NCBI RefSeq assembly: GCF_030384885.1 | Contig: NZ_CP128613.1 | Length of the DNA: 64,000 bases | Source of the DNA: Escherichia coli | Lineage (GTDB): Bacteria; Pseudomonadota; Gammaproteobacteria; Enterobacterales; Enterobacteriaceae | Strand: one strand, 5' to 3' | In this document: positions 48,997 to 52,136 of the stretch, piece by piece | How positions within the stretch are numbered: the first letter of the stretch is position 1 | Layout of the letters: each line of letters opens with the position of its first letter | The notes under the pieces: generated by a model | Databases searched by the model: none | Told to the model about the DNA's origin: nothing | The model's input: only the letters and a program-made list of their open reading frames with translations | Program-made: the position numbers and the translations under genes

Positions 48997-49055
48997 AGTG
49001 AATAATGCGCTTTGCTTTTAACTTTTAAAGCAGAAATATTGCATAATTATTCTGT
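48997..49055 (+). promoter_or_regulatory. Putative ArgR operators (ARG boxes) upstream of artP
   Basis: TGAATaatgcgcTTTG and TGCATaattATTCT resemble the TGAAT-N4-ATTCA ARG box; art operon is known to be ArgR-repressed. Confidence 0.5.
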
Positions 49056-49110
49056 CAAAGGTACTATCTTCGACCTCAATAGCTATCAGACTGCCAGTAT
49101 ACGAGTGTCA

Positions 49111-49839
49111 ATGAGTATTCAATTAAACGGCATTAATTGCTTTTACGGCGCGCATCAGGCGCTGTTCGATATCACGCTGGATTGCCCACAGGGCGAAACG
49201 CTGGTGTTACTTGGCCCCAGTGGCGCGGGTAAAAGCTCGCTGCTGCGTGTACTCAATCTGCTTGAGATGCCGCGCTCCGGTACGCTCAACATTGCAGGCA
49301 ACCATTTCGATTTCACCAAAACGCCCTCAGACAAAGCGATTCGCGATCTGCGTCGTAACGTCGGTATGGTGTTTCAACAATACAACCTGTGGCCGCACCT
49401 CACCGTGCAGCAAAACCTGATTGAAGCGCCCTGTCGTGTACTGGGATTGAGTAAAGATCAGGCGCTGGCCCGTGCAGAAAAATTGCTGGAACGTTTGCGT
49501 CTAAAACCTTATAGCGATCGTTATCCGCTGCATCTTTCTGGTGGTCAGCAGCAGCGTGTTGCTATTGCGCGTGCGTTGATGATGGAACCGCAGGTACTGC
49601 TGTTCGATGAACCGACCGCCGCGCTGGACCCGGAAATTACGGCACAAATCGTCAGCATCATTCGTGAGCTGGCAGAAACCAATATTACCCAGGTGATCGT
49701 CACCCACGAAGTGGAAGTGGCGCGTAAAACCGCCAGCCGTGTGGTGTATATGGAAAATGGTCATATCGTAGAACAAGGCGACGCGCGCTGCTTTACCGAG
49801 CCGCAAACCGAAGCATTTAAAAACTATCTCTCTCACTAA
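49111..49839 (+). CDS. artP: Arginine ABC transporter ATP-binding protein
   Basis: ORF track 49012..49839 (TTG); start set to ATG 49111 ([13 protein letters not shown]), 242 aa; Walker [10 protein letters not shown]. Confidence 0.93.
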
Positions 49840-49856
49840 GATTCGGGATAACAACA

Positions 49857-50588
49857 ATGAAAAAAGTTCTGATTGCCGCGTTAATTGCAGGTTTTAGTCT
49901 TTCCGCCACAGCTGCCGAAACTATTCGTTTTGCCACCGAAGCCTCCTATCCTCCGTTTGAATCAATGGATGCAAACAACCAGATCGTTGGTTTTGACGTC
50001 GACCTGGCGCAGGCATTGTGTAAAGAGATTGATGCGACCTGCACTTTCTCTAACCAGGCGTTTGACAGCCTGATCCCAAGCCTGAAATTCCGTCGCGTAG
50101 ACGCGGTGATGGCTGGTATGGATATCACCCCGGAGCGTGAAAAGCAGGTGCTGTTTACCACGCCGTACTATGACAACTCTGCCCTGTTTGTGGGTCAACA
50201 AGGTAAATACACCAGCGTTGATCAGCTGAAAGGCAAAAAAGTCGGCGTTCAGAACGGGACGACGCACCAGAAATTCATTATGGATAAACATCCGGAAATC
50301 ACCACGGTTCCTTATGATAGCTACCAGAACGCAAAACTCGATCTGCAAAACGGTCGTATCGACGGCGTTTTTGGTGACACCGCAGTGGTAACCGAATGGC
50401 TGAAAGATAACCCGAAACTGGCGGCTGTCGGCGACAAAGTAACCGATAAAGATTACTTCGGTACTGGCCTCGGCATCGCGGTACGTCAGGGCAACACTGA
50501 ACTGCAGCAGAAATTCAACACTGCGCTGGAAAAAGTGAAGAAAGATGGCACTTACGAAACCATCTACAACAAATGGTTCCAGAAGTAA
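49857..50588 (+). CDS. artI: Arginine-binding periplasmic protein 1
   Basis: ORF track 243 aa; signal peptide. Confidence 0.95.
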   Translation: MKKVLIAALIAGFSLSATAAETIRFATEASYPPFESMDANNQIVGFDVDLAQALCKEIDATCTFSNQAFDSLIPSLKFRRVDAVMAGMDITPEREKQVLFTTPYYDNSALFVGQQGKYTSVDQLKGKKVGVQNGTTHQKFIMDKHPEITTVPYDSYQNAKLDLQNGRIDGVFGDTAVVTEWLKDNPKLAAVGDKVTDKDYFGTGLGIAVRQGNTELQQKFNTALEKVKKDGTYETIYNKWFQK

Positions 50589-50594
50589 TACCTG

Positions 50595-51311
50595 ATGAAT
50601 GAATTTTTTCCTTTAGCAAGCGCCGCCGGGATGACCGTCGGCCTTGCCGTTTGTGCATTGATTGTCGGACTGGCGCTGGCGATGTTCTTTGCGGTGTGGG
50701 AGTCAGCAAAATGGCGTCCTGTCGCGTGGGCAGGTTCAGCGCTGGTGACGATTCTGCGTGGTCTGCCAGAAATTCTGGTGGTGCTGTTTATCTATTTTGG
50801 CTCCTCTCAGTTACTGCTGACGCTTTCGGATGGCTTCACCATCAATCTTGGGATCGTACAGATCCCGGTGCAGATGGACATTGAGAACTTCGACGTTAGC
50901 CCGTTCCTGTGTGGGGTTATCGCCCTGTCGCTGCTGTATGCCGCCTATGCCTCGCAAACCCTGCGTGGCGCACTGAAAGCGGTACCGGTGGGCCAGTGGG
51001 AATCCGGTCAGGCGCTGGGGCTGTCGAAATCGGCTATCTTTTTCCGCCTGGTGATGCCACAGATGTGGCGTCATGCGTTGCCTGGCCTCGGTAACCAGTG
51101 GCTGGTACTGCTAAAAGATACCGCATTGGTCAGTTTGATAAGTGTGAATGACTTAATGCTGCAAACCAAAAGCATCGCCACTCGTACCCAGGAGCCATTT
51201 ACCTGGTACATTGTGGCGGCGGCGATTTACCTGGTGATTACCCTGTTGAGTCAGTACATTCTCAAACGCATTGACCTGCGCGCGACACGTTTTGAGCGGA
51301 GGCCTGGCTGA
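50595..51311 (+). CDS. artQ: Arginine ABC transporter permease
   Basis: ORF track 238 aa. Confidence 0.95.
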
Positions 51312-51979
51312 TGCTTGAGTATTTACCCGAACTAATGAAAGGGCTACATACCAGCCTGACGCTAACCGTTGCCTCGCTGATTGTGGCGCTGATTCTGGCG
51401 TTAATTTTTACCATCATCCTGACGCTGAAAACGCCGGTACTGGTGTGGCTGGTGCGGGGCTATATCACGCTGTTTACCGGTACGCCGCTGCTGGTGCAGA
51501 TCTTTCTGATTTACTACGGGCCGGGCCAGTTCCCGACGTTACAGGAATATCCGGCACTGTGGCATCTGTTATCAGAACCGTGGTTATGCGCGCTGATTGC
51601 GTTGTCACTGAACAGTGCGGCGTATACCACGCAGCTGTTTTACGGTGCAATTCGTGCGATCCCGGAAGGTCAGTGGCAATCCTGTAGTGCCCTGGGGATG
51701 AGCAAAAAAGATACGCTGGCGATCCTGCTGCCGTATGCCTTTAAACGCTCACTCTCTTCTTATTCCAACGAAGTTGTGCTGGTGTTTAAAAGTACCTCTC
51801 TGGCTTACACCATTACGCTGATGGAAGTGATGGGTTACAGCCAGTTGTTGTACGGACGCACCTACGATGTCATGGTGTTCGGCGCGGCGGGAATTATTTA
51901 CCTGGTCGTCAACGGCCTGCTGACACTGATGATGCGTTTGATCGAGCGCAAAGCGCTGGCGTTCGAGCGACGGAATTAA
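51311..51979 (+). CDS. artM: Arginine ABC transporter permease
   Basis: ORF track 222 aa; start overlaps artQ stop. Confidence 0.95.
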   Translation: MLEYLPELMKGLHTSLTLTVASLIVALILALIFTIILTLKTPVLVWLVRGYITLFTGTPLLVQIFLIYYGPGQFPTLQEYPALWHLLSEPWLCALIALSLNSAAYTTQLFYGAIRAIPEGQWQSCSALGMSKKDTLAILLPYAFKRSLSSYSNEVVLVFKSTSLAYTITLMEVMGYSQLLYGRTYDVMVFGAAGIIYLVVNGLLTLMMRLIERKALAFERRN

Positions 51980-51997
51980 TGTTATCTACGTGCTAAT

Positions 51998-52032
51998 GCC
52001 GGGTGCAGCGTGCACGCCTTATCCGGCCTACA
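51998..52032. repeat. REP element
   Basis: GCCGGGTGCAGCGTGCACGCCTTATCCGGCCTACA matches the REP consensus. Coordinates approximate. Confidence 0.65.
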
Positions 52033-52056
52033 TAGTGCATAGATTAATATAATAAA

Positions 52057-52090
52057 GACGGACAACCCACTAAGTTGTCCGTCTTTTTTT
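52057..52090 (+). terminator. Rho-independent terminator downstream of artM
   Basis: GACGGACAAC-ccactaa-GTTGTCCGTC perfect 10-bp stem followed by T7. Confidence 0.8.
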
Positions 52091-52096
52091 ATTTAT

Positions 52097-52136
52097 TATG
52101 AATTATTTAATCATATTTATTGCATATAAATTCACT
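52097..52136 (+). promoter_or_regulatory. Tandem ARG boxes (ArgR operator) upstream of artJ
   Basis: taTGAATtattTAATCAt and atTGCATataaATTCAct; two 18-bp boxes matching TGAAT-N4-ATTCA. Confidence 0.65.

Follow-up and report, generated by a model that had tools for sequence, protein, structure and literature searches.

Two ArgR operators very probably govern artPIQM and artJ, the units that encode the arginine importer, in a divergent Escherichia coli lineage

The arginine importer of E. coli is encoded by the artPIQM operon and the adjacent artJ gene, which raises the question of whether each of the two units has its own ArgR operator, and where precisely these operators lie. We addressed this for a 64,000-nucleotide stretch of E. 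coli contig NZ_CP128613.1 (assembly GCF_030384885.1), hereafter the window. Gene annotation was taken from RefSeq record NZ_CP027579.1 (E. coli 2013C-4282), which is 100% identical to the window, and for artPIQM also from the ORF list. The genes run in the order ybjP-artPIQM-artJ on the plus strand (Table 1), and a GGGAG ribosome-binding site can be read 5' of the artJ ATG at 52206. Compared with K-12, 14.9% of the third codon positions of the art genes differ; positions 48999 to 49110 carry 0 differences (P = 1.4e-8), and positions 52101 to 52205 carry 2. An earlier sequence-only reading had placed ARG boxes upstream of both artP and artJ. Our analysis agrees: it is very probable that two separate ArgR operators, at 49017 to 49055 (PartP) and at 52098 to 52136 (PartJ), control the two transcription units.

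Table 1. Genes and regulatory features of the artPIQM-artJ region (window coordinates).
Feature	Position	Strand	Sequence or elements	Basis
Conserved block, putative Lrp nucleation/site region of artP	48977-48997	+	CGTTATTTTGTGCTATGTTTA	Column conservation, 65 species
Hairpin between ybjP stop codon and artP control region	48917-48958	+		-20.2 kcal/mol, z = -2.9
artP ARG box 1, promoter-distal, degenerate	49017-49034	+	TTTAACTTTTAAAGCAGA	PWM, 6.5 bits
artP ARG box 2, promoter-proximal, strong	49038-49055	+	ATTGCATAATTATTCTGT	PWM, 17.15 bits
Putative promoter PartP	49039-49067	+	-35 TTGCAT (49039-49044), 17-bp spacer, -10 TACTAT (49062-49067)	Sequence
artPIQM operon	49111-51979	+		RefSeq and ORFs
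artP	49111-49839	+		RefSeq and ORFs
artI	49857-50588	+		RefSeq and ORFs
artQ	50595-51311	+		RefSeq and ORFs
artM	51311-51979	+		RefSeq and ORFs
Intrinsic terminator after artM	52054-52096	+	13-bp stem, then T-run	Terminator scan
artJ ARG box 1, promoter-distal, weak	52098-52115	+	ATGAATTATTTAATCATA	PWM, 7.2 bits
artJ ARG box 2, promoter-proximal, strong	52119-52136	+	ATTGCATATAAATTCACT	PWM, 19.35 bits
Putative promoter PartJ	52120-52148	+	-35 TTGCAT (52120-52125), extended -10 TG (52140-52141), -10 CATTGT (52143-52148)	
artJ CDS, arginine-specific periplasmic binding protein	52206-52937	+		RefSeq annotation

ARG boxes are 18-bp imperfect palindromes (wnTGAATwwwwATTCAnw) that occur in pairs, with 3 bp between the boxes and a center-to-center distance of 21 bp (2 bp between boxes at argR), and a strong box joined to a weak one is the usual design of an ArgR operator. 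A position weight matrix (PWM) was trained on nine K-12 arginine-regulon operators, the art operators being excluded. Box offsets of 20 to 22 bp were allowed in the fit; a strict 21-bp offset had mis-picked the argR site, whose boxes lie 2 bp apart on inspection and were recovered with the wider range. The matrix recovered all nine training operators, which match ARG-box sequences described in the older literature, and yielded the 18-bp palindromic consensus AATGAATAATTATTCATT.

A weight-matrix scan for ArgR sites, the check that the sequence-only reading had proposed, placed the art sites at the top two ranks of the 64 kb. Among single boxes, artJ box 2 ranked first and artP box 2 second, followed by a third hit at 12.4 bits; among pairs, artJ ranked first (26.6 bits) and artP second (23.7 bits). 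The expectation that artP would be the weaker match thus holds for the pair as well as for its box 2. The proximal boxes match the 18-bp palindrome as scored by a matrix from independent operators, and both best pairs have the canonical 18+3+18 spacing (offset 21). The training operators score between 26.2 and 40.2 bits as pairs, so that the art pairs sit at the bottom of this range or slightly beneath it. Both distal boxes score lower than any training box, the weakest of which has 8.7 bits (at argR), and are too weak to be called singly. The third-best single box (49106 to 49123) was rejected as an operator: it overlaps the artP start codon and has no partner box, its right half is coding sequence (ATGAGTATTCAA), and its left half is unconserved. 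The matrix found no credible pair upstream of potF in the window (best, 11.6 bits); PMC5343134 counts potFGHI among the ArgR targets of some taxa.

A σ70 consensus scan called neither PartP nor PartJ, and both promoters were placed by conservation. Across species, artP loci keep TTGCAT and, 17 bp on, a TAnnAT hexamer, and artJ loci keep TTGCAT and, 17 bp downstream, TGGCAnnGT. From these patterns we infer the -10 elements and transcription start sites, the PartP start probably lying near 49072 to 49077 and the PartJ start near 52155. In both proximal boxes, the TTGCAT hexamer occupies box positions 2 to 7. The operators thus sit over the putative promoters, as in K-12, where the ARG boxes overlap the -35 elements of PartJ and PartP to equal extent according to PMC6640053, citing Caldara 2007.

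The operators are deeply conserved. In a set of 80 Enterobacterales species, 67 have a pair of at least 15 bits before artP, and so do 67 of the 69 artJ loci found in this set, against 4 of 2,399 control tiles of 300 bp. The 21-bp offset is kept at 65 of the 80 artP loci and 66 of the 69 artJ loci. Box 2 is near-invariant at both (among Enterobacterales loci for artP, in 66 species for artJ) and identical to K-12 (18/18 for artJ). Box 1 of artP, which precedes box 2 by exactly 21 bp and is likewise identical to K-12, is conserved in position as TTTAAnTTTTAACGCAnA in 65 species, and the cross-species consensus of artJ box 1 is nAAAAATATTTAATCATT. In profiles anchored on box 2, conservation is confined to the boxes and the -10 regions.

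Since the putative -35 hexamer lies inside the proximal boxes, it could be a partial source of their conservation. These sequences might then be maintained as promoter elements (-35 TTGCAT and UP-like A/T tracts) together with Lrp-type sites, ArgR playing a minor role in this strain. The Lrp literature lends this some substance: at high Lrp, protection of PartP extends from about -165 to -10, in competition with ArgR, and PartP is approximately 9-fold less ArgR-repressible than PartJ (PMC6640053). However, the palindrome is conserved over all of its 18 bp, also in the ATTCA half that follows the -35 element, as is the distal box 21 bp upstream, and artJ is strongly repressed by ArgR yet not regulated by Lrp (PMC6640053). 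In addition, the matrix was trained on unrelated operators and therefore does not merely recognize a promoter. We consider a minor role for ArgR very unlikely.

A second alternative concerns the position of the artP operator. It was the TGAAT at 48999 to 49003 that led the sequence-only reading to start its interval at 48997, and the true operator lies 20 to 40 bp downstream of this motif. The motif is a perfect half-site, and the 18-mer around it (48997 to 49014) would stand 20 bp upstream of box 1, leaving a 2-bp spacer as at argR, so that it could be regarded as the operator itself or as a third ARG box in an extended one. Nevertheless, its matrix score is -4.9 bits, owing to the mismatched right half CGCTT. 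Its columns are almost unconserved in 65 species (near-zero information at 48998 to 49007), and position 48998 differs in K-12. Given the putative start site, the TGAAT would also fall inside a published Lrp-protected zone (-67 to -95), and PMC6640053 describes two ARG boxes, not three. It is thus highly improbable that this 18-mer is the operator or part of it, and the pair at 49017 to 49055 is preferred.

The loose TGAAT-N4-ATTCA pattern on which the sequence-only reading had relied is uninformative by itself, with 30 matches in the window at up to two mismatches against 34.3 ± 5.1 expected from shuffles. The scores of the art pairs clearly exceed chance: none of the 5,000 dinucleotide shuffles made from either intergenic region reached them, nor did any of 200 shuffles of the whole window. 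Two of the four control tiles reach at least 20 bits; both carry an artJ-type box 2 (ATTGAATATAAATTCAnT) at loci classed by the filter as lacking artJ, and look like missed artJ operators. A chance origin of the sites, as AT-rich palindromes of an AT-rich intergenic background and unrelated to ArgR, has almost no probability left. In its favor, the loose consensus is no more common than in shuffles, intergenic GC content is only 38 to 42%, and the AT-rich island upstream of ybjP holds a 16.9-bit pseudo-pair at 47476. Against it, the composition-matched local shuffles, the recurrent 21-bp register, the rarity of high-scoring control tiles, and the ArgR footprints on near-identical K-12 sequence given in PMC6640053 effectively refute it already.

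At artJ, the claim of two good tandem boxes stands as far as the tandem arrangement goes, whereas only box 2 is near-consensus and box 1 is weak, scoring 7.2 bits at offset 21 and 5.1 bits at offset 22. The corresponding K-12 box 1, the version used in the published experiments, is TTAAATTATTTAATCATG (4.8 bits), from which ATGAATTATTTAATCATA in the window differs by a 1-bp insertion, an A-to-G change, and one further substitution. The insertion and the A-to-G change give this box a perfect TGAAT half-site (52099 to 52103; TAAAT in K-12), which lies 1 bp outside the conserved 18+3+18 register. The allele is rare, being present in 9 of 5,426 complete E. coli genomes, counted with a 32-mer query as those sharing an exact word of at least 28 nt over the TGAAT. 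An initial 34-mer query had made it appear unique to the strain, an artifact of a neighboring SNP that broke the 28-nt word; alignment with strain R32_14_1F and a better-placed 32-mer gave the nine genomes. The out-of-register TGAAT could alter cooperative ArgR binding and thus artJ repressibility. The terminator that follows artM ends 2 bp before box 1 and has a stem that Escherichia, Salmonella, and Citrobacter all conserve.

Together, these features suggest a regulatory scheme. Each operator comprises two 18-bp imperfect palindromes separated by 3 bp, a near-consensus proximal box containing the putative -35 hexamer and a degenerate distal one. When arginine is plentiful, hexameric ArgR-arginine would bind the two boxes from the same side of the helix and keep RNA polymerase off the promoter, so that neither the transporter (artPIQM) nor the high-affinity binding protein (artJ) is made. 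PartP would be further repressed by Lrp, bound just upstream and competing with ArgR. In this scheme ArgR binding, steric exclusion of the polymerase, and the interplay with Lrp are carried over by analogy from the K-12 literature. According to PMC6640053, which cites Caldara 2007, ArgR binds and represses both artJ and artP in K-12, each through two 18-bp ARG boxes 3 bp apart. ArgR excludes RNA polymerase at PartJ, and Lrp acts as a competitive repressor at PartP (PMC6640053). The ArgR control of arginine uptake proposed by the sequence-only reading agrees with these K-12 footprints and reporter data. The ArgR regulon of gammaproteobacteria includes artPIQM in its core, with artJ as a taxon-specific member (PMC5343134); the main text of the ChIP-exo paper of Cho 2015 does not mention art. 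Because the sites are present, this divergent lineage would keep the feedback loop in which high arginine turns off both uptake and synthesis.

At PartP, Lrp protection is reported from -86 to -112 and from -67 to -95, and an Lrp site is predicted between -85 and -98 (PMC6640053). The conserved block at 48977 to 48997 may correspond approximately to the published nucleation region and predicted site, the mapping being approximate because it depends on the putative PartP start.

The sequence-only reading had also put some 100 bp between the artP operator and the island side of ybjP, and here it erred. The 2.56-kb, AT-rich island (45805 to 48363) adjoins ybjP at its 5' end, stopping 14 bp short of the ATG, and replaces part of the ybjP upstream region but nothing near the artP operator, which starts 124 bp past the ybjP stop codon (48893) and 654 bp from the island. 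The stable hairpin between ybjP and artP was not called in the terminator scan and is not a canonical intrinsic terminator, as no U-tract follows it. It is speculation that the insertion affects ybjP-artP read-through: if the island boosts ybjP transcription past the U-less hairpin, artPIQM would receive read-through transcripts beyond the reach of ArgR, which reportedly makes a poor roadblock (PMC6640053). A loosening of the arginine control of uptake in this rare lineage, through the artJ box 1 allele and the island, is unlikely, and we regard both as minor leads on strain-level regulatory variation.

The artP and artJ sites are already characterized ArgR operators, known and ordinary. The value of the analysis lies mainly in annotation, namely, the precise positions of the two operators and of their putative promoters, with the artP box corrected. 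The quantitative conservation footprint across 80 species in turn supports the published K-12 biochemistry.

When compared to K-12, the artP operator at 49017 to 49055 is identical at 39 of 39 positions to the K-12 operator studied by Caldara et al. 2007 and Torres Montaguth et al. 2019 (PMC6640053). It shares the two 18-bp boxes, the 3-bp gap, the position over the putative -35 element, and the conserved upstream block at about the place reported for Lrp nucleation (PMC6640053). Four substitutions distinguish the 218-bp intergenic regions, all outside the operator; ybjP is 14% diverged, and the 2.56-kb upstream insertion is absent in K-12. Similarly, artJ retains the K-12 box 2, putative promoter, and 5' UTR except for a substitution at 52153, together with the 18+3+18 design and the artM terminator immediately upstream. 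However, the artJ pair scores 26.6 bits in the window and 24.2 bits in K-12, which has an extra REP copy of approximately 65 bp further upstream that the window lacks. Compared with the canonical operators of argI, argF, argECBH, carAB P2, argA, argD, argG, and argR, the art operators share the palindrome consensus, the tandem boxes on one helical face, and the overlap with a promoter, here putative; like argR, argD, and hisJ, they combine a strong box with a weaker one. They differ in score (23.7 to 26.6 bits, in contrast to 39 to 40 bits for argI and argF), in covering only the putative -35 element rather than both the -35 and -10 elements, and in having as their targets a transporter instead of biosynthetic enzymes.

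The sequence-only reading had placed ArgR operators before artP and artJ. That observation is real and its main reading is right, with coordinates and details corrected below; both operators are already known. A megablast search with positions 47800-53200 returned one record at 100% identity, E. coli strain 2013C-4282 (NZ_CP027579.1), and the gene order ybjP-artPIQM-artJ-rlmC-ybjO-potIHGF is the same in K-12. For artJ, the ORF list starts at an in-frame ATG (52155) upstream of the RefSeq start, which is preceded by GGGAG; the upstream ATG would lie at or before the putative transcription start.

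Features of the ybjP-artJ neighborhood (genes from the RefSeq annotation of NZ_CP027579.1; island, the AT-rich insertion, from blastn against K-12)
Feature	Coordinates	Strand
island	45805-48363	
ybjP	48378-48893	+
ybjP-artP intergenic region	48894-49110	
artP	49111-49839	+
artI	49857-50588	+
artQ	50595-51311	+
artM	51311-51979	+
artM-artJ intergenic region	51980-52205	
artJ	52206-52937	+
rlmC, ybjO, potIHGF	3' of artJ	-

A symmetric 18-bp weight matrix was iterated from wnTGAATwwwwATTCAnw, taking the best tandem pair in each upstream region of K-12 carAB, argF, hisJ, argA, argG, argR, argD, argECBH, and argI (n = 9); the art promoters were deliberately excluded from training. Offsets of 20 to 22 bp were permitted in the final fit, as a strict 21-bp offset mis-picked the argR site because the K-12 argR boxes are separated by 2 bp. 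The nine training pairs score 26.2 to 40.2 bits. We take the fitted pairs to agree with ARG boxes described in earlier work, for example at argI (AATGAATAATCATCCATA / ATTGAATTTTAATTCATT).

Scanned across the 64-kb window, this matrix ranks the artJ promoter-proximal box (box 2; 52119-52136, ATTGCATATAAATTCACT, 19.35 bits) and the artP box 2 (49038-49055, ATTGCATAATTATTCTGT, 17.15 bits) as the two best single boxes; the third reaches only 12.4 bits. That third match, TGTCAATGAGTATTCAAT at 49106-49123, overlaps the artP start codon and was rejected as an operator: it has no partner, its right half is coding (ATG AGT ATT CAA), its left half is unconserved, and the match is probably coincidental. 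The two best tandem pairs of the whole window, both at offset 21, are the operators of artJ (52098-52136; 7.2 + 19.35 = 26.6 bits) and artP (49017-49055; 6.5 + 17.15 = 23.7 bits); the next unrelated pair, of 16.9 bits, is within the island. This is the weight-matrix check proposed with the sequence-only reading, and both pairs lie above the dinucleotide-preserving shuffles of the whole window (n = 200; best pair 14.6 ± 2.9 bits on average, maximum 23.1). When each intergenic region was shuffled locally, 0 of 5,000 shuffles reached the observed pair score. The simple pattern TGAAT-N4-ATTCA on which that reading relied does not discriminate by itself: with up to two mismatches it shows no excess in the window (30 matches versus 34.3 ± 5.1 expected).

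Conservation was assessed in 80 Enterobacterales loci found with ArtP, one genome per species, ranging from Escherichia to Dickeya, Edwardsiella, and Hafnia. In the 300 bp upstream of each gene, a pair scoring 15 bits or more was present at artP in 67 of 80 loci and at artJ in 67 of 69; the offset was nearly always 21. Among 300-bp control tiles from the same loci, 4 of 2,399 reached 15 bits. Only two reached 20 bits, each with an artJ-type box 2 (ATTGAATATAAATTCAnT) and each from a locus where the filter had detected no artJ. In ungapped profiles anchored on box 2, conservation is limited to discrete blocks at artP and artJ. Within Escherichia, 5.5% of art coding positions and 14.9% of third codon positions differ between the window and K-12. 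By contrast, 48999-49110 shows 0 differences (P = 1.4e-8 given the third-position rate) and 52101-52205 shows two (P = 8e-6).

At artP, the operator is identical to that of K-12. The box had been read from a TGAAT at 48999-49003, starting at 48997, a placement that does not hold: 48997-49014 scores -4.9 bits and is unconserved, and K-12 differs from the window at 48998. The main conserved block, 49017-49086, comprises both boxes, CAAAGG, and TACTAT and reaches into the beginning of the 5' UTR; a separate block lies upstream at 48977-48997. In both operators, TTGCAT occupies positions 2 to 7 of the proximal box, followed after 17 bp by TAnnAT at artP and by TGGCAnnGT at artJ, the latter looking like an extended -10; these would represent the -10 elements of the artPIQM and artJ promoters (PartP and PartJ) and set their putative transcription starts. 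Across 65 species, 49056-49086 (CAAAGGTACTATCTTCGACCTCAATAGCTAT), which spans the putative PartP -10, is strongly conserved, including about 19 nt beyond the hexamer. It could be a transcription start region, 5' UTR, or sRNA target; PMC6640053 mentions that SdsR acts on artPIQM in Salmonella.

The sequence-only reading had set the artP operator about 100 bp from the island side of ybjP. It is the ybjP 3' end that lies about 124 bp away; the island stops 14 bp short of the ybjP start codon, so that ybjP separates it from the operator, at a distance of 654 bp. Between ybjP and the operator, positions 48917-48958 can fold into a stable hairpin (-20.2 kcal/mol, z = -2.9). It is identical in K-12, is followed by no U-tract, and was rejected as a canonical terminator; it could be a 3'-end stabilizer or weak terminator. 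Some ybjP transcription may read through into artP, and the idea that the island changes artP expression is speculative. The island (2,559 bp, about 31% GC) stands in place of 50 bp of the spacer between ybjQ and ybjP in K-12 and has a gene for a pentapeptide-repeat protein, annotated as frameshifted in this strain. A matching segment occurs in 1,128 of 5,426 complete E. coli genomes, including O157:H7, but the common allele and that of the window share only about 82% identity; 17 genomes match the latter at ≥99%. ybjP shares 86% DNA identity with K-12 (third-position divergence 28.5%, protein about 91%) versus 93-97% for the adjacent art genes, divergence falling sharply at the ybjP-artP spacer; the gene appears to belong to a divergent haplotype that is linked to the island. 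The wider region 43837-54500 is itself unusually diverged for E. coli (93-96% DNA identity to K-12), and only 19 of 5,453 records reach 95% identity over 47800-53200, a number that the island tail and divergent ybjP in the query help to lower. Possible explanations are that the strain comes from a deep-branching lineage or that 43837-54500 was imported.

Torres Montaguth et al. 2019 (PMC6640053), summarizing Caldara et al. 2007, describe ARG sites overlapping the -35 of PartJ and PartP to the same extent, with RNA polymerase excluded by ArgR at PartJ; the TTGCAT position in both proximal boxes fits this overlap. They also describe Lrp as a competitor of ArgR that binds both upstream of the artP operator and across it, and ArgR as a poor roadblock to elongating polymerase. 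Because the artP operator and artJ box 2 are identical to K-12, we expect with high confidence that the K-12 mechanism carries over. According to a comparative study of regulons (PMC5343134), artPIQM is a core member of the ArgR regulon in gammaproteobacteria and artJ a taxon-specific one.

The artJ conserved block, 52098-52148, comprises both boxes and TGGCATTGT. Upstream, at about 51996-52032 within spacer part 51980-52053, the window carries a single REP-like copy (...GCCTTATCCGGCCTAC...); the K-12 spacer (L002 3077-3366, - strand) is about 65 bp longer through a second copy, a difference upstream of the artM terminator and outside the operator. The "two good tandem boxes" described at artJ prove to be one near-consensus and one weak box (19.35 versus 7.2 bits). 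The TGAAT at 52099-52103 lies one base off the 18+3+18 register, in which box 1 reads ATGAATTATTTAATCATA; at offset 22 its left half is perfect, the right half fails, and it scores 5.1 bits. This allele is rare, a word of at least 28 nt covering it being common to 9 of 5,426 complete E. coli genomes; a 34-mer query, misled by a neighboring SNP, had made it appear unique to the strain. ArgR would be expected to bind it, and by the matrix the alleles do not differ greatly (pair score 24.2 bits in K-12 versus 26.6). K-12 has ATT-TAAATT where the window has TGAAT, and the left half is A-rich in E. albertii, Salmonella, and Citrobacter. The arrangement of one strong and one weak box recurs at argR, argD, and hisJ of K-12.
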